DNA from: a virus
Lineage: Duplodnaviria; Heunggongvirae; Uroviricota; Caudoviricetes
Length of the DNA: 39,834 nt
Virus record (IMG/VR): IMGVR_UViG_2563366858_000008
Direction: 5' to 3' (one strand)
Position 1 is the first letter of the stretch. Every line of letters starts with the position of its first letter. A program made the translations under genes and the position numbers. The notes below the pieces were generated by a model. That model was not told the DNA's origin. It did not search any database and saw only the letters and a list, made by a program, of their open reading frames with translations. This document shows, piece after piece, positions 532 to 39,834 of the stretch.

Positions 532-1071
532 ATGAAGAAAGTTTTTCTTTGCGCCATCTTAGCCTCCTTAAGCTATCCGGCTATCGCCTCATCATTGCAG
601 GATCAACTCTCGGCTGTCGCAGAAGCGGAACAGCAAGGTAAAAATGAAGAGCAAAGGCAGCATGACGAATGGGTCGCGGAGCGCAACAGGGAAATCCAGC
701 AAGAGAAGCAACGTCGCGCAAACGCCCAGGCCGCGGCTAATAAAAGAGCGGCAACGGCAGCGGCGAATAAGAAAGCTCGTCAGGATAAACTGGACGCCGA
801 AGCCACTGCGGACAAAAAACGCGATCAAAGTTATGAAGATGAGCTACGCAGCTTAGAGATTCAGAAACAAAAACTGGCGCTGGCGAAAGAAGAAGCCCGC
901 GTCAAGCGCGAAAACGAATTTATCGATCAGGAACTGAAGCACAAAGCTGCGCAAACCGATGTGGTGCAATCTGAAGCTGACGCAAACAGAAATATGACTG
1001 AAGGCGGTCGCGATCTGATGAAAAGCGTGGGCAAAGCAGAAGAGAACAAATCGGACAGCTGGTTTAACTAA
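532..1071 (+). CDS. yfgI: Secreted coiled-coil protein (YfgI-like); host flank
   Basis: AGGAGG 6 nt upstream of ATG; signal peptide then charged coiled-coil; 179 aa. Symbol from recalled similarity, not verified. Confidence 0.6.
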   Translation: MKKVFLCAILASLSYPAIASSLQDQLSAVAEAEQQGKNEEQRQHDEWVAERNREIQQEKQRRANAQAAANKRAATAAANKKARQDKLDAEATADKKRDQSYEDELRSLEIQKQKLALAKEEARVKRENEFIDQELKHKAAQTDVVQSEADANRNMTEGGRDLMKSVGKAEENKSDSWFN

Positions 1072-1289: not shown

Positions 1290-1772
1290 CTATCTGGTCA
1301 GGGTGTCGTACTGTTTTTCGCAGACTCTTCCGGCTTCGGCTGCCCGGTCAGCATACTCTGCCAGTTGTCTGTTTCTCTCGAGAGATTTGCTGAGCACGTC
1401 GGCAAGCAAAACTCCGGTATCTGCGGCTGACGACCCAGCGCCGACAATGGCGTTATAGTGCCTGAGCTGCTCACGGATGGCAACGAGCTGTTGCTGCAAC
1501 CGGCCAGCGCGAGCGGCAGCATCAAGAGCATCATTGCGCGCCTGGTCGATCCTCTGCTGCGCTTCACGTTCATTGATCGATTTCTCCTGTTCGTAGTGCT
1601 GACGAACTCTCTCATCTTCGGTTTTGCGGTCTTCTTTCGCCTGTGCATACCCGGCGTCGTACTGACGACTGCCGTGCACATTCCAGGCAACAACTCCTGA
1701 TATGACCAGAACAGCAAGCACCGCCATGATAATCAACTGATTACGGTATGCTTTTACGAATGCCCAGATCAT
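1290..1772 (-). CDS. Rz-like i-spanin
   Basis: N-terminal TM helix then coiled-coil periplasmic domain; start overlaps endolysin stop (ATGA); Rz1 embedded in +1 frame. Confidence 0.75.
1298..1534 (-). CDS. Rz1-like o-spanin lipoprotein, embedded in Rz
   Basis: Internal Met of the 1298..1717 frame gives [13 protein letters not shown] signal with lipobox, then Pro/Ser-rich short protein. Exact start uncertain. Confidence 0.5.
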   Translation of the reverse strand: MMLLMLPLALAGCSNSSLPSVSSSGTITPLSALGRQPQIPEFCLPTCSANLSRETDNWQSMLTGQPKPEESAKNSTTP

Positions 1773-3241: not shown

Positions 3242-5182
3242 ATGTCTTATTTAAAATACAGAACAGATATTGATGGGCTGCGAGCTATTGCGGTTTTGCT
3301 GGTCGTGCTGTACCACGCAAACTTTCCTATTCATGGTGGTTTTATTGGTGTAGATGTTTTTTTCGTCATATCAGGATATCTCATTACCAACATCATATAT
3401 AAAGAGACTAAAAGAAATATTTTTTCATTCCTTAATTTTTACAAACGTCGAATAAAGCGATTGCTCCCAGCTTTTGCTTTTCTTCTTTTATTTTTATTTG
3501 TTTACTGCAAATTATATTTGATGCCAGATGAACTTATATCATTCTCTAAAAGTGCGGTATACGCTCTTCTTGGCATAAGCAATTTCTATTTTTTTAGTGG
3601 CACAGGTTACTTTAACTCAACCTCTTATGAACCGCTTTTACACACATGGTCGCTTTCCGTTGAAGAGCAGTTCTACATTGTATGGCCTTTCATCGTTTTC
3701 ATGCTCGCTCGGAACTCAGGGACAAAAAAAGCAATAATAATATCCTCATTACTATTTATTGTATTCCTTGGTATTTCACAGTATGGAGCAGTTAATTATA
3801 AAACAGCAGCGTATCTCCTACTGCCTTTTAGGTTCTTTGAGTTGCTCTCAGGTGCCCTACTTGCTATCTATAAAGATTCAATAACAAAACATCTGCGCCA
3901 CGGTTCTGTAATTTCACTGGTCGGCGTAATGCTGATTGTGTTGAGTTCATTATTTATAAATTCTAACACGCCATTTCCTGGGTTCACTGTTTTGCCTACA
4001 TGTTTAGGCGCTGTAATGCTTATTGCTGCAGGTGACTCATCCAAAAACTTCATTTCTAAAGTGCTGTCTTTAACTCCAGTTGTTTATGTAGGAAGAATTT
4101 CCTACTCTCTTTATTTATGGCACTGGCCTGTACTGATTCTTGCTGAATACAGGGGGATCGATCTTACGGCCTTAAATGCGACGGCGCTCATACTTATCGC
4201 ATTCATCATGGCAAGCATAAGCTATCACTTCGTTGAAAAGCCATTTAGGAAGGATTCGCTGCAATATTTCAGGACTGCATTTATAACCATCTACCTGATA
4301 CCATTAATAGTATCCGCTGCCTATGCAGCGTACATTTTAAAAAATGATGGTTTTCGCGCCAAAAGTTCAGAGTTAGTATCTGAATTAGAAGAGAGAAACG
4401 CGACAAATATTATGCGCCCACAGTGTATTGATAAATTATTTATCGGTAATGTAAATGACTGTCATCTTGGCGTTAATAAAGGCGAAGTAGATGGCGTGCT
4501 TCTTGGTGACTCCTTTGGTAATGCATATGCTTACTTTATTGATGAACTTGCGAAAGATGCTGGAATATCAATAACAGATACTACATATAGCTCAACACCT
4601 GTAATATCAGGAATTTATGTGCAGGATATCAGGAATAAGATATCTGACATAGATGCTAACCTGATAATGACATATACAAAAAACAGGCTGGAGTATGCAG
4701 CAAAACAAAAGTTCGCGATAATTTCCGTTTTTTGGGATCAGTACGGGCCACAAAATAATTACTTCCGTATCTTCGATAAAAACGGTGACGTATCGGAGAA
4801 TGCTTACCAGTTGCAATCTGAAGCAATAAAATATCTGCTGTCCAATGGCGTGAAAGTTTACATCATTGCAAGACCTTACCAGTCTATTGGCCCTGCTGCG
4901 ATAAACAAACTGCGCCAAATTAAGCTGCGGCATGGGGATGTAACTACTGAAAAATATGAATACGGCGTAAAGAAAGATGATCGGATAGAATACAAGTTAA
5001 AGCAGGAGTTCCCTCAGATAACGCTAATCGATCCTAACGATGTACTTTGCCACAAAGGGGAATGTGATGCCATCGTGGATGGAAAGATCATTTTCAGAAC
5101 TGATGGTTCACACCTGAATGCTGTTGGAGCAAAAAAAATCGGGGAAGAGTATTTGAAAAACTACGCAAACCCATTTCGATAA
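3242..5182 (+). CDS. O-antigen O-acetyltransferase, acyltransferase-3 membrane domain plus SGNH domain (OafA/Oac-like); lysogenic conversion
   Basis: N-terminal multi-TM domain with conserved YRxDIDGLRAIAV...H motif; C-terminal GDSFG (SGNH) motif; 646 aa; AT-rich relative to neighbours. Confidence 0.85.
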   Translation: MSYLKYRTDIDGLRAIAVLLVVLYHANFPIHGGFIGVDVFFVISGYLITNIIYKETKRNIFSFLNFYKRRIKRLLPAFAFLLLFLFVYCKLYLMPDELISFSKSAVYALLGISNFYFFSGTGYFNSTSYEPLLHTWSLSVEEQFYIVWPFIVFMLARNSGTKKAIIISSLLFIVFLGISQYGAVNYKTAAYLLLPFRFFELLSGALLAIYKDSITKHLRHGSVISLVGVMLIVLSSLFINSNTPFPGFTVLPTCLGAVMLIAAGDSSKNFISKVLSLTPVVYVGRISYSLYLWHWPVLILAEYRGIDLTALNATALILIAFIMASISYHFVEKPFRKDSLQYFRTAFITIYLIPLIVSAAYAAYILKNDGFRAKSSELVSELEERNATNIMRPQCIDKLFIGNVNDCHLGVNKGEVDGVLLGDSFGNAYAYFIDELAKDAGISITDTTYSSTPVISGIYVQDIRNKISDIDANLIMTYTKNRLEYAAKQKFAIISVFWDQYGPQNNYFRIFDKNGDVSENAYQLQSEAIKYLLSNGVKVYIIARPYQSIGPAAINKLRQIKLRHGDVTTEKYEYGVKKDDRIEYKLKQEFPQITLIDPNDVLCHKGECDAIVDGKIIFRTDGSHLNAVGAKKIGEEYLKNYANPFR

Positions 5183-5212: not shown

Positions 5213-7444
5213 TTAAGACTTCTTAAGGTACGACCATGTAACAGTGGTCGTACCGCTGCTGGTAATAGATATATACCTTTCTGATACGCTTGCTGTGAGG
5301 AACGCCGCAGTCTTCAGCGTCTGGATCATTGCTGTCGTACCATCATAAATTACCAGGAATGAAATCGCGTAGTTTGCACCTCCGCCAGAAACCCACACGT
5401 TAACATCATAAACTCCCTCAGAGTTTGGCAAAGTAAATAGCACGGACGCTACGTTAGCGTTGACCGATTTAGTACCCTTGTCGGTATAGACCGTGGGCAC
5501 CTGAAGCCCATTGGCATTTTTATTTTCTACATACCCACCAGCAATAACGCCTGACGTGATGCAGTTCGTGTAGTTAACGTTGCCGGTGCTCACAGTAGAG
5601 ATGGTTGGAGTTCCTCCGGCCGGAGCCTGGAACCGGCAGTTATCTGCATCAACCTGCGAGGTTACATCTGTGTGGATGAATGATGGATAGCCGGCCATTC
5701 CTTCAAAAGCGATCGGCGTACCATCGAAGCTATCTTTGCAGTTCAGCATCTTCACGCGAGATCCATTTATCGCGCGGTAAAAATCAACGATACCATTAGA
5801 ACCACCGAAAGATGTTTTCAACTTGTTGCCAGAACCAACTGCCCCGACTATCGAAACGGTTGAATTATCGAATGTCATAAACGCCACCTCAAGTGCTGAG
5901 TTGTTGTTTATAACGTTCGCCTCACCATCAAAACCGGAGATAAGAAATCCGTGACAATTCGAAAGGTAAATAGCAGACTGACCGATAGACTCGTTGGAGT
6001 TTACTGTCATCTTATCTGCTGCGCAGTTCGTCATCTGCCCTGAAAGGAGGTTTGTTAAATACCACGCGCATACACCCCCCATTACATAGCAGGACTCATA
6101 ATGGATCGTCGTGCCGGTGTTTTTGTAGAAACCACCGCGACTGCGACGCACCCATACATGCTCAAGCCTAGACATATAATTTCCAGAGTCGTCATATACT
6201 CCCCACCATGCCCCATCTATATCGACGTTTTTAATCCTTATCAAACCCGGCGATGTCTCACCACCATTTATAAGAATGCCAATTTTACCGTCGTTTGTGG
6301 CAGCATCTGTTGGATAGTCAATTCCATTCTGATCATAGAAAATATATAAATTCTCAATATTTCCTGAAGCAAAAGACTCTCCATAATGGAAGCACGCTTT
6401 ATTTCCAATTACGGAAATAAAAGTCCCTGATCTGTTTATTATGTTATTACACTCACCGTATACAGTTGCAGATGTATTCATCTTAATAGTGTCATTAACA
6501 AAATATGCATTTCCACCTGGAATAAACACATTTCGTCCAGTGTTAATAGCTGCCTGTATTCCTGCGTAGTCAAAAGACTGGGTAAGCGATGTCACAAATG
6601 GATATACCATTTGTGCTGCTGTCAATGTTGAAAACACTTCGCTTAACTGATGAAGTTTTCCATCGCCTGTAGCACCAAAATCTTTTGCACTAATAAAATC
6701 GCTGTTTTTATCATGCTGTGTACGAATAAATGAACTAATGAAAGGTTGCTTCACCGAGATCAGAGCATCGCCTTTCCCGTCCTCGCCGCTGGCCAACTGG
6801 TTGAATACATCAGCCGCCGTTCCTGAAGGCACAGGGAACGGAACGGGCTTACCGTTGGCGATGCCGATTATGCTTCCTTCAAGTTGAGCGAGAGGTGGCA
6901 GCGGATCGATATAAGAATCAGGAACACGGATTGTATGGTCGATATTCGATAAAACCGTACTGTCCACATAATTCTTTGTGGATGCATCCTGCGGGTTTAC
7001 CGGGTCTTTCAGGTTTCGAATATAGTTGTTCAGCGCGTTATAATAATTTGCCACGAATGACGGCTTGCGCAGCGCCAAGCTAAACCAACTTCGAACCTGC
7101 TGGATCAGCATCGTTAGCTTATCAAAAGCATCCTCATGCACTTCTGCAAAGAACTTCCCCTGATTACGCAAATCAGTTTCCTGCGTAACCGGGAGCTCTC
7201 GTGATATAGAAATCTGGTAACCGTTAGCTAACGCCTTCGACAGAATTACATTACCGCCGTTATATCCACCAGCCCCAGTGACAGTGTAATCAGTATCAAG
7301 AGCCAGCACAGCGATATTTTCGTCAAGGTCAACCACCTGCACTACCAGATCAGATTCCTTGAAAACCCTAAAGGTATAAGGGAATGAAGTCGTAACGCCA
7401 TTGCCTGTGTATTCGTTGTGGTCAACTTCGGTTGAGACCGTCAT
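5213..7444 (-). CDS. Tailspike protein
   Basis: 743 aa; N-terminal MTVSTEVDHNEYTGNGVTTSFPYTF resembles the particle-binding domain of epsilon15-type tailspikes (recalled); central region has beta-helix-like repeats; GGAG RBS. Confidence 0.75.
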   Translation of the reverse strand: MTVSTEVDHNEYTGNGVTTSFPYTFRVFKESDLVVQVVDLDENIAVLALDTDYTVTGAGGYNGGNVILSKALANGYQISISRELPVTQETDLRNQGKFFAEVHEDAFDKLTMLIQQVRSWFSLALRKPSFVANYYNALNNYIRNLKDPVNPQDASTKNYVDSTVLSNIDHTIRVPDSYIDPLPPLAQLEGSIIGIANGKPVPFPVPSGTAADVFNQLASGEDGKGDALISVKQPFISSFIRTQHDKNSDFISAKDFGATGDGKLHQLSEVFSTLTAAQMVYPFVTSLTQSFDYAGIQAAINTGRNVFIPGGNAYFVNDTIKMNTSATVYGECNNIINRSGTFISVIGNKACFHYGESFASGNIENLYIFYDQNGIDYPTDAATNDGKIGILINGGETSPGLIRIKNVDIDGAWWGVYDDSGNYMSRLEHVWVRRSRGGFYKNTGTTIHYESCYVMGGVCAWYLTNLLSGQMTNCAADKMTVNSNESIGQSAIYLSNCHGFLISGFDGEANVINNNSALEVAFMTFDNSTVSIVGAVGSGNKLKTSFGGSNGIVDFYRAINGSRVKMLNCKDSFDGTPIAFEGMAGYPSFIHTDVTSQVDADNCRFQAPAGGTPTISTVSTGNVNYTNCITSGVIAGGYVENKNANGLQVPTVYTDKGTKSVNANVASVLFTLPNSEGVYDVNVWVSGGGANYAISFLVIYDGTTAMIQTLKTAAFLTASVSERYISITSSGTTTVTWSYLKKS

Positions 7445-7600: not shown

Positions 7601-7620
7601 TACTGTATAAATATACAGTT
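7601..7620 (+). promoter_or_regulatory. LexA (SOS) box
   Basis: TACTGTATAAATATACAGTT matches CTGT-(A/T)8-ACAG; lies 20 bp upstream of the moron start codon. Confidence 0.75.
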
Positions 7621-7639: not shown

Positions 7640-7897
7640 ATGCAGCAGTATCACTATCCACTGAAAGAGGGATTTACCGAAAGGATTCACACGCCGGGAG
7701 GCGTCAGGTCACTGGTGGAAGGATCGCACTTGATGAAATTACTCCGGGATCTCGATAAGGATGGATTTAATGTCGATGGCCCACTTGCCGAACTGACTGC
7801 ACTGATTAACTACGTCACCAGCTCACAGATGTCTATGCAGGATCTGCAAACACATCTCGACTATTGTGCCGAACAATTACGAAAACAAACCCGGTAA
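7640..7897 (+). CDS. Small SOS-regulated moron protein, unknown function (candidate antirepressor)
   Basis: GGAGAAG RBS 5 nt before ATG 7640; 85 aa; the track's longer ORF from 7517 would contain the LexA box. Confidence 0.6.
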   Translation: MQQYHYPLKEGFTERIHTPGGVRSLVEGSHLMKLLRDLDKDGFNVDGPLAELTALINYVTSSQMSMQDLQTHLDYCAEQLRKQTR

Positions 7898-7921: not shown

Positions 7922-7933
7922 GTGACATGTCAC
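7922..7933. repeat. 12-bp perfect palindrome GTGACATGTCAC, copy 1
   Basis: Between lipoprotein stop (7937) and terminator hairpin. Confidence 0.8.
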
Positions 7934-7936
7934 GAC

Positions 7937-8350
7937 TTATAAAGATGACTGATATTTTACAACTCTGTTCATGGCATCTTTTTTCACCGAGCTGATATCA
8001 GTTCTTATTTTGGCTTCGTCATTACTGTTTATCATGCTATTAACTTTTTGCACAGACATGCCGTTTCTTTCAGCCATTGCACATACAGCAGCATCGTATG
8101 AAGAACTCGCTGCGATGGATATAACCTTGTTACACTCAAACACAGCACCTTCAGCAATATCAGATGCCGATGATGCTGACTTGGTATAAGTCTTGACGTA
8201 GTGATCAATACAACTATCCTTCGCCGTCTTGGCAAGAGAAAAATCCATTTTAACCTTGTCGCAATATGCCTTATCAACACCGTCATAAACATCATAGGAT
8301 GTCGAGCAAGCGGATATCAAAAATACCGATAACAGCAATAATTCCTTCAT
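7937..8350 (-). CDS. Lipoprotein moron (possible superinfection exclusion)
   Basis: Signal peptide with lipobox ISAC; 137 aa; AT-rich; between ejection-protein genes and tailspike. Confidence 0.6.
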   Translation of the reverse strand: MKELLLLSVFLISACSTSYDVYDGVDKAYCDKVKMDFSLAKTAKDSCIDHYVKTYTKSASSASDIAEGAVFECNKVISIAASSSYDAAVCAMAERNGMSVQKVNSMINSNDEAKIRTDISSVKKDAMNRVVKYQSSL

Positions 8351-8359
8351 TGTTGTTCC

Positions 8360-10834
8360 TTATTGCGGAGTGACATCCTGAGGTCGCCACCAGTATGTCT
8401 GGTTAAACTCTTTCTTCGAACGTTGCTCCATTTTACGCAAATAGCCTGGTGAAAAATACTCCTGCATCTGGTTAAAGATCATGTGATCGAGAGCCGCCTT
8501 TAAGTACCAGAGATTCGCACCTGGCATCAGACCTTTCCCCAGCTTAACCAGATCACCACCAGTCTGCTCATTCTTCCCTTCCACAGCATTTAACGGTATG
8601 CCCTGAGCAATCTTCACTACGTCATCAACCAGACCAGCTACCGGGCCAAGCATCGACGCCAGCGCGCCGCTTCCGTACCTAGTGTGATCTGACAATAAAA
8701 AGTCACCGTAAAGGCCAAGACCACCACCTTTCAGTAGAGCACCAAGCCAAAATTTAGCAGCATCTTCTCCTGTCATCTCGCGATGATTACGACCAGACGC
8801 AAGGTCGTTAAGTTGCTGAGACAAAGCGCCAAGAATGGTCGTGCTGGCAATAAACGTCGCAATATATGCCGCACGCCCACCAGCAGACGGCATACCCATA
8901 GCGCGTGACCAGTGACGCATAACCACCGAGATAGGGAACGATTTAAACAGGAAAACACTTCTCGTTAATTCACCTTTCCATGTTCCACGCTGAATACCAG
9001 AACCGGTTATCAGTTGCTCACGTGCTCCCGGTGTAATAACAGCCATATCAACTTCTTCAGTTACGGCACCGAGCAGTTTACGCATTGCCTCAAATTTCAC
9101 GCGTTCAGGCTCACCAAGATGTTTAACTGCTGAATCAGGGATACGCATAATGCTTTCCGGTGTCAGCATCGTATTATTACCGTTCCCCCAGTCCTCCTGT
9201 TGCGCCAGCTTCCATACGCTCCAGTCTGTGTCAGTAATCCCTTTGCTTTTCAGGATACGAAAATCAGAGTCATCGAGGCTACGAAGGTCTGGTGTCCGTG
9301 ACACTACTTCTCCCAGGCTTCCCATCATGGTTACGCCATAGGCGCGCTTGTGCGCATCTGACCATGCTGTAAGCCCACTGGCACGCATTACCGCCGTTGC
9401 CGCCCAACGAGACACTGACGGCCCCATATTATCCATCGCCCAGCGGTTAACGCTGCCAAGTAGAGATTCCATCGCCAGACCAGCGCGGCGCGCCCGCGCA
9501 AGTTCTGTACGGTTCGTTGGGTCCATAGCTTCAAGCTGGTTGCGAAATAACTGGTTCATTGGAAGGTTGGTCACCTTCGCAGACAGATACATGGTTCCAA
9601 GATCAGAGAACGATGACAGCAACGCGGATCCGAGTCTGCTGGCAACCAGCCAGTTGCGGATAGTGTCAGACCATCGCGCGATGTGCGGATTCGCTACAGG
9701 CTGTGTCTTTCCGGAAATAAAGTTGTACAGATTCTCTGTGTTGTTCGCCAGCCGCTCGACTTTACCGGTTTTACTCGGGTTAGCTGTTGCCGTTTCTGCC
9801 TTAACCTGATCAAGAAGGGAGCGGAAAACATGATCGGGGTTTGGACCATATGTTTCCACCAGAGCAATATCTTTACTGATACCTTCCAGGTGACCGACCA
9901 TGATTTCCCATAGAGAGCGATCACCATAAAGTTGTTGATATTGGAGATAGGAATCTGCATCTTTGAAATGTATCTGTCGTGATGCATTACCACGGTTAGC
10001 ACGTGCGCCGGAAATTCGCATTCCGGTATCAGTAAGCTTATTCAGCCCACCAGTAGCGATCGTGTTATAAGCCTCTCCAAGAAATGCAGACAACTCGGCA
10101 TCGTTCATCAGTTGTCCATCGGCTCGGGTATAATATTTGCGATCCAGCTTACCTATAACATCGCCAACCCACTTATCCTTTGATACCGCCCCAACCTTTT
10201 CCATAGAATGATGTTGAGGGATCCCCCAGTTTTCGAGATAGCCAATGTCCCCACCAGCATCATTAAACCGGCGGCGCAGCAGCTCTGTAACTTCTCTCCA
10301 CGCCTTAGCACCTTTTCTTGCTTTAGCATTGCCAGTATTTTGCCCCCGCATTTCATATACCAGGTCACGTACGCCCGCTTCATCTTCAAACAGACCAAAA
10401 AAGCGAGGATCAACTGCTTCGAATGCCTCCTGCAATTGACTCAATGCATAATCACGGGTGGCTTTTGTTCTGGATTCAACAGAGAGGAAATTAGATTTAC
10501 CGTCTGCATTAAAAGCTATAGTACGGTTAAGAGCGCCAAGTTTACCATCAGCCCCTTGATAGCTATTGATAAATTTATCCAATCTCTGACGCGCGGCTAT
10601 AGTGAGAGCCACACGACGTTTCTTTAATGCCGCTTCTCGCTGTAATTCTTCAGATGCCAATTGTGCTGCTCGATATAGCCGCTCTGATTCGGAAAGTTGT
10701 CGCCACGACATCGGGTCATCACGAGCAATGGAGCGCATATTTCGATAAATGCGGTCTTCAATGTTCTGTATTTCTCGCGCCGTTAACGTGCGCTGCGCCG
10801 CCTGCTGGACCGCTTGTATACATTCCTGTCTCAT
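8360..10834 (-). CDS. Large internal virion / DNA-ejection protein
   Basis: 824 aa; last of a block of large co-directional genes between head and tailspike, as in T7/epsilon15-type podoviruses. Confidence 0.5.
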   Translation of the reverse strand: MRQECIQAVQQAAQRTLTAREIQNIEDRIYRNMRSIARDDPMSWRQLSESERLYRAAQLASEELQREAALKKRRVALTIAARQRLDKFINSYQGADGKLGALNRTIAFNADGKSNFLSVESRTKATRDYALSQLQEAFEAVDPRFFGLFEDEAGVRDLVYEMRGQNTGNAKARKGAKAWREVTELLRRRFNDAGGDIGYLENWGIPQHHSMEKVGAVSKDKWVGDVIGKLDRKYYTRADGQLMNDAELSAFLGEAYNTIATGGLNKLTDTGMRISGARANRGNASRQIHFKDADSYLQYQQLYGDRSLWEIMVGHLEGISKDIALVETYGPNPDHVFRSLLDQVKAETATANPSKTGKVERLANNTENLYNFISGKTQPVANPHIARWSDTIRNWLVASRLGSALLSSFSDLGTMYLSAKVTNLPMNQLFRNQLEAMDPTNRTELARARRAGLAMESLLGSVNRWAMDNMGPSVSRWAATAVMRASGLTAWSDAHKRAYGVTMMGSLGEVVSRTPDLRSLDDSDFRILKSKGITDTDWSVWKLAQQEDWGNGNNTMLTPESIMRIPDSAVKHLGEPERVKFEAMRKLLGAVTEEVDMAVITPGAREQLITGSGIQRGTWKGELTRSVFLFKSFPISVVMRHWSRAMGMPSAGGRAAYIATFIASTTILGALSQQLNDLASGRNHREMTGEDAAKFWLGALLKGGGLGLYGDFLLSDHTRYGSGALASMLGPVAGLVDDVVKIAQGIPLNAVEGKNEQTGGDLVKLGKGLMPGANLWYLKAALDHMIFNQMQEYFSPGYLRKMEQRSKKEFNQTYWWRPQDVTPQ

Positions 10835-15164: not shown

Positions 15165-15704
15165 TTATCGACCGGTTGGAGTGCCAACAGCAGCAGAAAT
15201 CGGCGCAGCCTTCTGAGAGAACGGGCTCCACGTTCCGCCGCCCAACTTATATGCACCGTATGCTTTTAGTGGTGCCGTTAACAAAGTGCTGGTCATCGAT
15301 GATTTAGCAGCCGACTGAGCAGCAGCACCCTGTGCCTGAGCATTCATTCCCTGAACCTGATACCCATATGCCTCACGCTGAGCATTATTCACTGTCGTTA
15401 ACGCATCAAGAGTGCCGAACTGAGCATTATCCGCAAAAACGTCAAGAGCTGTTCCGCTACTTAATTCCGCACCGGTAGCCCCCATAGTGGCCGCCGCAGT
15501 GCCTGAGCGTTGACGCATTTCACGACGACGCTGATCCGCTTCAATATTCCCACGATTGATTGAATCCTGTGCCTGAGCTTCAGCAATTTCAGCATTCCGA
15601 TCAGCTATGGCTGACTGGTATTTTGCCTGCTTGCTCTGGCTGTACATTGACGCGGCTGTGGATGCCACTGTGACGGCAACCAAAGCGATGGCTGGGTTAC
15701 ACAT
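15165..15704 (-). CDS. Internal virion protein, Ala/Gln-rich
   Basis: 179 aa; N-terminal hydrophobic segment; start overlaps upstream stop by 1 nt. Confidence 0.45.
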   Translation of the reverse strand: MCNPAIALVAVTVASTAASMYSQSKQAKYQSAIADRNAEIAEAQAQDSINRGNIEADQRRREMRQRSGTAAATMGATGAELSSGTALDVFADNAQFGTLDALTTVNNAQREAYGYQVQGMNAQAQGAAAQSAAKSSMTSTLLTAPLKAYGAYKLGGGTWSPFSQKAAPISAAVGTPTGR

Positions 15705-22151: not shown

Positions 22152-22448
22152 TCACTCCTGTTCACTGGCCTCTTTGGCCATCTTCAAATACTGTTCAGGG
22201 CAATGCGCCATAACGCGCTGAAACAGTTCCAGCGCCAGATTGCGTTGCCCCTCATTAAATGCCATAGCCATAGCGTCCATCGGTGAGATAGCAGAAAACA
22301 CACGGCCTTTCTCCAGCACCGACCAGACAACGCGACGCCCCTGTTCACTGCTCATGACAAAGCGAATGTCATCAATTTCACGCTGTGCCATGTCACGTTG
22401 CTTACGGGCGTTTTCTTCTTTCAGTTGATCGTCTTCGTAATCTGTCAT
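22152..22448 (-). CDS. Small head-assembly protein
   Basis: 98 aa; ATGA overlap with portal stop. Confidence 0.5.
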   Translation of the reverse strand: MTDYEDDQLKEENARKQRDMAQREIDDIRFVMSSEQGRRVVWSVLEKGRVFSAISPMDAMAMAFNEGQRNLALELFQRVMAHCPEQYLKMAKEASEQE

Positions 22449-25428: not shown

Positions 25429-25440
25429 GTGACATGTCAC
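25429..25440. repeat. 12-bp perfect palindrome GTGACATGTCAC, copy 2
   Basis: 4 bp after the stop of the 25053 gene, immediately before a terminator. Confidence 0.8.
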
Positions 25441-27879: not shown

Positions 27880-27891
27880 GTGACATGTCAC
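27880..27891. repeat. 12-bp perfect palindrome GTGACATGTCAC, copy 3
   Basis: Contains the TGA stop of the 27888..28226 gene and abuts the RBS of the 27658..27870 gene. Confidence 0.8.
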
Positions 27892-38583: not shown

Positions 38584-39834
38584 TTATTCCTCCGCCATCC
38601 ACTTCTCAAACTTCGACGGGGAGAACGGAATCAGATCCGTATGCTCCCCGTTAATCCAGGAATCAATCATATCGGCCCACTGCTGCAACATGTAGGCGCG
38701 CTGTCTGGCGTATTCCGCTTTGTTATATACGGCGCGCACACCTTTCTGCTCATGTGCCAGAGCCTTTTCAATCCAGTCTGAAGGATAACCAGCCTCATGC
38801 AACAACGTACTGGCTGTACGGCGCATATCATGTACAGTGAAGTCCTGAATATGATCACCATCTTCATTTATTATTTTCACCGTTCTGTCGATCAGAGAGT
38901 TCAGCGCGGCATTAGATAATGGCTTCCGGAAATTGTAACGACCAGGAACCAGATATTCACTTCCACCAGCGCACATCTGCAACCCGATTAATATATCCTG
39001 TGCCTGTTTAGGCAGGTAAATAACGTGCGCCCGACTTCCCTTCATGCGGTCTGAAGGAATTGTCCATGTCCATTTTTTAAAATCTATTTCATCCCACGTT
39101 GCATTGGTGAATTCGCCTTTACGAACCATAGTGATAAGCACCAGCTTTAAAGCCATTTTCATAGTGCCCATAGCACCAATGGCATCCAGCGTGCGGAAGA
39201 ACAGACCAATTTCTTCTGGTGTCAGTGTTCGCTCTCGTGGTTTAAATATGGCGATAGACGAAGGTTTAATGTCAGCCGCAGGATTAAACAAACCATGACC
39301 ACGGTCATTGGCGTGACGGTATACGCTGCTGATGATCTCCCTGGCCTGCACTGCTGTTGCCCGACCACCGCGTTCGACAATCCGGTCACACAAATCACGA
39401 ACCATCGATGTGGTAATTTCAGCCATTATTTTGTTGCCAAGAACCGGAAGTATGTCACGGTCGATCACCGCCTGCTTCATTGCGCGGGTACTGTCAGCCA
39501 GGATGACGTGTTTCATATAACTGTCGGTATGTACCGCAAACGTCTCGGCACCACGAATCTTTTTGATACCGTCACGTTTAGCCGCAGCCGGCGACTGGCC
39601 TGCTTTAAGCAGCTTCTTTGCAGCAATCAGTTCTTCTCGCGCTTCTGCCAGGCTGATACCGTCACGCCCATACTGCCCGATTACCAGTGTTTCGCGGCGA
39701 CCGTTGATACGGTAGTCATAGCGAAACGAGACCGTGCCTGACGTAAGCACAGCTACATACAGCCCGTCACGATCGGAGACCTTGTACAGTTTGTCCTGCG
39801 GCTTGAGGTTTTTTAATTTTGTATCGGTAAGCAC
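38584..39834 (-). CDS. int: Tyrosine integrase, P4-like; start at window edge
   Basis: N-terminal LTDTKLKNLKP...YKVSDRDGLYVAV arm-binding-like domain; C-terminal HDMRRT and VYNKAEY catalytic Tyr region; GTG at 39832..39834, upstream context not visible. Confidence 0.9.
   Translation of the reverse strand: MLTDTKLKNLKPQDKLYKVSDRDGLYVAVLTSGTVSFRYDYRINGRRETLVIGQYGRDGISLAEAREELIAAKKLLKAGQSPAAAKRDGIKKIRGAETFAVHTDSYMKHVILADSTRAMKQAVIDRDILPVLGNKIMAEITTSMVRDLCDRIVERGGRATAVQAREIISSVYRHANDRGHGLFNPAADIKPSSIAIFKPRERTLTPEEIGLFFRTLDAIGAMGTMKMALKLVLITMVRKGEFTNATWDEIDFKKWTWTIPSDRMKGSRAHVIYLPKQAQDILIGLQMCAGGSEYLVPGRYNFRKPLSNAALNSLIDRTVKIINEDGDHIQDFTVHDMRRTASTLLHEAGYPSDWIEKALAHEQKGVRAVYNKAEYARQRAYMLQQWADMIDSWINGEHTDLIPFSPSKFEKWMAEE

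Follow-up and report, generated by a model that had tools for sequence, protein, structure and literature searches.

What is the function of the lipoprotein gene that directly follows the last DNA-ejection gene of an epsilon15/phiV10-type prophage? We analyzed the whole stretch of DNA that carries this gene (39,834 nucleotides, hereafter the window), a complete prophage of this type (Uetakevirus) that is matched at 100% identity by Escherichia coli AF5, a blood-culture strain from the UK. The prophage is integrated between guaA and yfgH/yfgI, and since the host genes yfgH and yfgI lie at the left end and the integrase gene at the right, the window spans the whole prophage. The features that frame the locus are as follows:

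1-516: yfgH, host DNA (itself an outer-membrane lipoprotein), at the left end of the window
532-1071: yfgI, host DNA, at the left end of the window
1290-1772: Rz gene of the lysis cassette (phrog_312, E 8e-58)
Embedded in Rz: Rz1 lipoprotein of the lysis cassette (phrog_11621, E 8e-36)
3242-5182, plus strand: AT3 + SGNH O-antigen acetyltransferase gene, 646 aa, adjoining the tailspike gene; GC 0.382
5213-7444, minus strand: tailspike gene, 743 aa
8360-10834, minus strand: gp17-like internal virion protein, 824 aa (phrog_684), the upstream operon partner of the lipoprotein gene
15165-15704, minus strand: T7_gp14-like protein (Pfam E 3e-8)
38584-39834: integrase gene, adjoining guaA, at the right end of the window

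The virion genes of the prophage lie on the minus strand, and the ejection block runs in the order T7_gp14-like protein, 837-aa protein, 600-aa protein and the 824-aa gp17-like protein, which is the last. Over the virion block, phages PAS61 and phiV10 are 95–97% identical to the window (megablast). Only the first ~160 residues of the tailspike (window ~6967-7444) are common to phiV10 and PAS61; the rest differs, and this divergent remainder would fit a different O-antigen specificity.

The lipoprotein and its predicted fold

The original prediction had called the gene product a 137-aa lipoprotein with a clean lipobox, and analysis of its N-terminus, which reads MKELLLLSVFLISAC followed by STSYD, confirmed this description. 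Under a PROSITE PS51257-type rule (a basic n-region, an uncharged h-region and [LVI][ASTVI][GAS]C within the first 35 residues), K2 gives the basic n-region, LLLLSVFLI the uncharged h-region, and LISA before C15 the lipobox (I-S-A-C15), with Ser at the +2 position. The same rule describes all 20+ full-length homologues, in which residue +2 is Ser, Thr or Gly and in none of which is it Asp. By the Lol +2 rule, a lipoprotein with Ser at +2 is delivered to the outer membrane's inner leaflet; Ser at +2 thus predicts an outer-membrane location for the phrog_8691 lipoprotein. The gene and its parts are located as follows:

7937-8350, minus strand: lipoprotein CDS, 137 aa, a member of phrog_8691 (RefSeq WP_000661386.1, 'hypothetical protein')
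8306-8350, minus strand: signal peptide (aa 1-14) and lipobox cysteine C15 (L-I-S-A-C)
8081-8263, minus strand: twin CX16C region (C30, C47, C73 and C90) in two long antiparallel helices

The mature lipoprotein consists of 123 aa, with a mass of 13.3 kDa and a pI of 6.75. The AlphaFold2 model (pLDDT 86.6) is all-alpha, with helices at residues 24-55, 62-72, 74-96, 100-106, 109-117 and 120-136. Residues 1-17 are disordered in the model and the helices start at residue 24, which points to a short tether. No hydrophobic segment was found after the signal peptide, and the modeled domain is a soluble helical bundle. The four cysteines of the twin CX16C motif are invariant across all relatives, down to 25% identity, a range over which the lipobox is kept too; together with the model, the cysteine pattern suggests two disulfides that would staple the long antiparallel helices and a periplasmic location of the domain.

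The gene is also AT-rich, as had been predicted, with a GC content of 0.389 (GC3 0.391), compared with 0.487 for the window and 0.495–0.511 for the three upstream virion genes. Comparison with the Citrobacter copy revealed that synonymous sites are 40% different and non-synonymous sites 2.8% (dS = 0.58, dN = 0.028, dN/dS = 0.049), and to judge from these rates the gene is genuine and under strong purifying selection. It is extremely improbable that the ORF is spurious or that it encodes an Rz1-type o-spanin. We rejected the spurious ORF on the dN/dS of 0.049 and on conservation across genera. An o-spanin would likewise be a phage-encoded, predicted outer-membrane lipoprotein. We rejected this assignment since epsilon15 and phiV10 are classified with two-component spanins (PMC6139136), since the prophage has its own Rz with embedded Rz1 in the lysis cassette, ~6 kb from the lipoprotein gene, and since the mature protein is helical, 123 aa long and not proline-rich.

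A fixed slot with interchangeable cassettes

The immediate surroundings of the lipoprotein gene contain the following features:

7603-7618: perfect LexA box CTGTATAAATATACAG, 22 nt upstream of the 85-aa antirepressor ORF
7640-7897, plus strand: antirepressor gene, 85 aa, convergent with the lipoprotein gene (phrog_450; 88% identical to the annotated Ant of Salmonella phage SPC32H)
7894-7921, minus strand: intrinsic terminator (7-bp G+C-rich stem, 4-nt loop, T-rich tail)
7922-7933, no strand assigned: perfect palindrome GTGACATGTCAC, which separates the stop codon from the terminator
8351-8362, minus strand: junction TAA-GGAACAACA-ATG, comprising the gp17-like stop codon, a 9-nt spacer and the AAGGA Shine-Dalgarno sequence

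The AAGGA Shine-Dalgarno sequence of the lipoprotein gene overlaps the stop codon of the gp17-like gene. Among the 26 IMG/VR contigs that bear the lipoprotein, 19 have an identical junction TAA-GGAACAACA-ATG and every one has the same TAAGGAACAACA junction; this RBS/stop flank is common to phages with other cassettes. Comparison with PAS61 revealed identity to the window up to ...GTGACATGTCACG, with divergence starting exactly at the cassette stop codon and identity resuming at the RBS/gp17 stop; the same two junctions are present in all 26 IMG/VR contigs with the lipoprotein. The gene had been placed between the ejection-protein genes and the tailspike. It does lie 9 nt after the gp17-like gene, and on the other side the convergent antirepressor gene intervenes before the tailspike. 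The LexA box and the 85-aa antirepressor appear to represent the antirepression switch under SOS control that is known from this phage group.

On the downstream side, the terminator is formed by the stem at 7921-7904 (AGGCCGC-TTTC-GCGGCCT) plus TTAAATTTAC on the minus strand, and a 51-nt segment that combines it with the adjacent GTGAC/GTCAC hairpin folds with -16.5 kcal/mol (z = -2.5). In relatives the stem is kept and the loop varies. The gene had been credited with a terminator of its own: a hairpin does follow it, but the hairpin belongs to the conserved flank and is found too in phages with a different slot gene. The palindrome GTGACATGTCAC is likewise kept in all lipoprotein loci and in phage PAS61, which has the 46-aa cassette described below. 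In the window as a whole, the 12-bp palindrome is perfect three times (7922-7933, 25429-25440 and 27880-27891; chance expectation 0.06), with a fourth copy bearing one mismatch at 22385-22396; two copies lie between a stop codon and a terminator hairpin, and AACACC precedes two copies. The palindrome may serve as a regulatory site or bind a protein.

A consensus scan found no sigma-70-like promoter in the 400 nt upstream of the lipoprotein gene, a scan that a weak or non-sigma-70 promoter could escape; the best candidate scores 8/12 and lies 341 nt away. On this result, we read the lipoprotein gene as the final cistron of the late virion operon and not as an autonomous moron. As to the term moron, foreign composition and presence or absence between conserved flanks agree with it, but no promoter was found. 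The description 'moron with its own terminator' thus overstates the autonomy of the gene, which is a cassette in a fixed slot and not a strict moron.

In phiV10, PAS61, SPN1S and SPC32H, the slot holds a 46-aa protein with two predicted transmembrane (TM) helices (PhiV10p21 / SPC32H_019, phrog_7892). The lipoprotein ORF is swapped ORF-for-ORF with this 46-aa 2-TM protein of phiV10, PAS61 and SPC32H, with identical flanks. We surveyed the slot in 80 IMG/VR contigs whose gp17 C-terminus is 96–100% identical to that of the window, reading the next ORF after gp17 in each:

57-aa 2-TM protein: 39 contigs
46-48-aa 2-TM protein: 31 contigs
41-aa single-TM protein: 8 contigs
No ORF: 2 contigs, in which the contig ends before the slot

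In 78 of the 80 relatives, therefore, the slot product is a small membrane protein from one of three unrelated families. The 57-aa gene is usually followed by a gene for a 98-aa multi-TM protein (phrog_3075), and this is the commonest cassette; the 41-aa gene is always followed by a gene for a different, 126-aa lipoprotein (phrog_3716, lipobox LLVGC), as in phage ZX5. This 126-aa lipoprotein is unrelated to phrog_8691 and was seen in phage ZX5 (locus L010, 133-513) and at L073, L059, L067, L080, L095 and other IMG/VR loci. The slot is never empty, its occupants are without exception envelope-targeted, and they make up at least four cassettes that are not homologous. The phrog_8691 lipoprotein is the rarer allele: it is present in 26 IMG/VR contigs, and a 521-nt query including the slot flanks matched 357 of 5,426 complete E. 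coli genomes, of which 22 have the lipoprotein. E. coli UMNK88 is, like AF5, a carrier. The 46-aa allele occurs in some contigs with a 100% identical gp17 C-terminus, which indicates that the exchange is recent. Foreign composition, exact ORF-for-ORF replacement and presence in 22/357 genomes all support the reading of the gene as a lipoprotein accessory cassette.

The same locus bears on a possible late lytic role, in which the protein would condition the outer membrane for lysis and release, or chaperone or sequester the ejection proteins, and would do nothing in the lysogen. We consider such a role quite unlikely: non-homologous replacement by proteins of different topology (2-TM inner-membrane versus lipoprotein) speaks against a specific core function, plasmids and islands support thriving relatives without any phage, and the lysis cassette of the window is already complete, with two holins, endolysin, Rz and the embedded Rz1 lipoprotein. 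What speaks for it is the arrangement of the gene, namely translational coupling to the gp17-like gene (gap of 9 nt here and 2 nt in Cedecea), no promoter of its own in the scan, the operon terminator behind it, and an unchanged position in a phage with a copy that shares only 26% identity.

The protein family and its distant relatives

The phrog_8691 profile matches the lipoprotein over its full length (E 7.5e-91, residues 1-137 on positions 1-137 of 137), and the function of the family is unannotated. Only 17 relatives were found among 5.8 billion proteins, their sources being E. coli, Enterobacter, Citrobacter and Cedecea; 16 of them have a length of 137 aa, and the remaining one is a fragment of 78 aa. 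Exhaustive HMM and profile searches add only a handful of relatives, with 25–44% identity. The exhaustive HMM search, covering 1.8 billion representative proteins, returned seven proteins: the family's own representative, a 40-aa fragment, four distant lipoproteins and P0022, a 3,870-aa Cys-repeat protein (E 2e-4) that we regard as spurious. Searches of Pfam, NCBIfam, PADLOC and PDB sequences gave only sub-threshold noise (for example Linker_histone, TrkA and MtN13), no structural match to the predicted fold was found, and tblastn of the lipoprotein and of its relative P0020 against 50,697 phage genomes gave no match. Single-protein scans of IMG/VR for P0018, P0021 and P0023 found nothing; P0018 itself comes from a 3-kb contig end, which is too short for its gene context to be read. 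Only prophages and metagenomes have yielded members of the phrog_8691 lipoprotein family.

In every close relative, the 54%-identical Cedecea copy among them, the gene starts 2-9 nt (Cedecea 2 nt) past the end of the gp17-like gene, and downstream come the convergent Bro-N/pRha antirepressor module and then the tailspike gene. The distant relatives, overall 25–29% identical, are found in an epsilon15-like phage, in a Q-holin slot, in Morganellaceae defence islands and on Col3M plasmids. P0023 (26% identity, metagenomic) is encoded in a divergent epsilon15-like phage, after an 855-aa gp17-like gene and an extra 191-aa gene. In a lambdoid IMG/VR phage, the Q antiterminator and holin genes flank a P0020-like copy encoded on the other strand, and a distant relative in locus L013 also matches phrog_8691 (E 1.2e-09). 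P0020 and P0024 (Providencia and Morganella; 25–26% identity) are found in integrase-AlpA-DUF3987-YfjJ islands, at the margin of a variable cargo comprising Gabija (GajB, E 5e-121), type III RM (PADLOC E 0), type I RM, GmrSD and SIR2, together with E1-E2/mad3-like genes and a Druantia-like helicase. P0025 is carried on non-mobilisable Col3M plasmids of 2.4–4.0 kb in Providencia and Proteus, and the 2.4-kb plasmids have just one other annotated ORF besides it. The relatives on Col3M plasmids are 142 aa long (L111, NZ_CP135992.1, 2,428 bp; L112, 4,044 bp; L015-L019) and are usually followed by a 146-aa ORF without a family match; a 3.7-kb Col3M variant has a pentapeptide-repeat (Qnr-like) gene, and another variant a GNVR (Wzz-like) gene.

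The occurrence of relatives on many kinds of mobile element indicates that the family provides a self-contained accessory function. Such a function could also be lysogenic conversion or fitness unrelated to exclusion, such as serum resistance, tolerance of envelope stress or bacteriocins, or a plasmid role. The foreign, AT-rich cassette, the blood-culture origin of the E. coli carrier and the relatives on tiny Col3M plasmids and in the lambdoid Q-holin slot, where virulence and fitness morons typically sit, agree with a fitness role, as does the range of mobile elements itself. Even so, we rate it as rather unlikely, given that there is no Pfam match to Lambda_Bor, TraT or another family, that no promoter for expression in the lysogen was detectable in the window, that the alternative slot occupants are tiny, hydrophobic and unlike virulence factors, and that the island relatives adjoin anti-phage systems and not virulence genes.

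Proposed envelope-level exclusion and comparison with known systems

Taken together, the gene encodes an orphan, mobile, twin-CX16C, predicted outer-membrane lipoprotein in a hypervariable envelope-protein slot that parallels sieA. By analogy, it is most likely an envelope-level superinfection-exclusion factor, a function that we propose tentatively. A predicted placement on the periplasmic face like that of Llp and Rtp45, a sieA-like slot and neighbours in defence islands together make exclusion the best-supported function, and the unvarying use of the slot for envelope-targeted proteins from unrelated families lends it indirect support; guilt by association through neighbours is weak evidence. 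According to the proposed mechanism, the lipoprotein, encoded by one of the four or more cassettes that replace each other in a fixed 3' slot of the internal-virion (DNA-ejection) operon of epsilon15/phiV10-type podophages, would be translated from the late polycistronic mRNA via the RBS overlapping the gp17 stop codon. A very short tether would then hold it in the outer membrane's inner leaflet, with its compact, disulfide-stapled all-alpha bundle facing the periplasm against the outer membrane. From there it could act on incoming phages in either of two ways, by blocking an outer-membrane component on which they depend or by preventing assembly of their trans-envelope ejection conduit. Infected or lysogenic cells would thereby be protected, and progeny spared futile ejection into debris.

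Several observations weigh against this proposal. No promoter for lysogenic expression was found and the gene looks coupled to the late operon. The note in the phiV10 record credits the homologue of the acetyltransferase with superinfection immunity by O-antigen acetylation, and the O-antigen acetyltransferase of the same prophage may already provide homotypic exclusion. We found neither sequence nor fold similarity of the lipoprotein to Llp, Cor, Rtp45, SieA, Imm, Sp, Bor, TraT or any PADLOC model. The relatives in defence islands and on plasmids, for their part, are only ~25% identical and may have a different role.

Among the 15 best E. coli records with the lipoprotein, six (H31, H32 and H35-H38) also show a second place matching the slot flanks; four of the six are near-identical strains. 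This second place may represent a second Uetakevirus-type prophage in the same genome; a second related prophage, if real, would argue against strong homotypic exclusion.

A broader version of the exclusion proposal is possible, if rather doubtful. It holds that phrog_8691 and its relatives form an unrecognised single-gene envelope anti-phage defence carried on podophage operons, in lambdoid moron slots, on PICI-like islands and on 2.4-kb Col3M plasmids, and more generally that Uetakeviruses keep a hypervariable 'sieA-equivalent' slot in which each allele excludes different phages. If the slot proteins do exclude phages, epsilon15/phiV10-type prophages, which occur in ~7% of complete E. coli genomes (357/5,426), would hold a second exclusion layer besides O-antigen modification. 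Such a layer, modular and placed just where P22 keeps sieA, would then suggest that short-tailed temperate phages follow a common principle of design. With the occurrence of the family in defence islands and on minimal plasmids, an inexpensive surface defence made of a single gene would be added, with relevance to host-range prediction for phage therapy against E. coli, Enterobacter, Citrobacter, Providencia and Proteus. Should the protein have another function, it would be an ordinary orphan accessory lipoprotein.

Among known exclusion proteins, T4 Spackle is a small, helical, disulfide-containing periplasmic protein. We rejected as speculation a Spackle-like inhibition of an ejection-protein transglycosylase domain, the 837-aa protein of the window being without an SLT match.

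The closest parallel in genomic position is P22, in which sieA lies between gene 16, encoding the last ejection protein, and gene 9, encoding the tailspike, and its inner-membrane product blocks the ejection-protein conduit (PMC10883804). The lipoprotein gene occupies the same genomic place beside an antirepressor module, and both are accessory genes present only in some relatives, with highly divergent types. SieA, however, is a polytopic inner-membrane protein expressed from the prophage, whereas the window protein is a lipoprotein without a TM helix after the signal peptide; it lacks the SieA motif FxRYPxEAxxFNK and has no sequence similarity to SieA. The allelic occupants of the slot, PhiV10p21/SPC32H_019 (46 aa) and the 57-, 98- and 41-aa proteins, share the same RBS/stop junction and the same terminator flank. 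They are envelope-targeted like the lipoprotein, but they are inner-membrane hairpins of unrelated sequence, size and topology.

The closest parallel in predicted placement is offered by Llp of T5 and by Rtp45, which bind to FhuA and LptDE, respectively, at their periplasmic face, allosterically prevent adsorption and spare progeny from debris (PMC9586334, PMC12685063). Like Llp, Rtp45 and Cor, the window protein is phage-encoded, carries a lipobox and is predicted to face the periplasm, held by a short tether in the outer membrane's inner leaflet, and its gene lies near the receptor-binding protein gene, inside or at the end of the virion block. These siphophage proteins, in contrast, are only ~6–8 kDa, about half the 13.3 kDa of the window lipoprotein, which is all-alpha, bears a twin CX16C motif and resembles them in neither sequence nor structure; moreover, the phage that hosts it is an O-antigen-specific podophage without a known protein receptor. 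Lambda Bor and plasmid TraT are, in turn, outer-membrane lipoproteins borne by mobile elements that alter host surface properties. This kind of protein is known, and the phrog_8691 family would add to the accessory or exclusion-type lipoproteins of phages.
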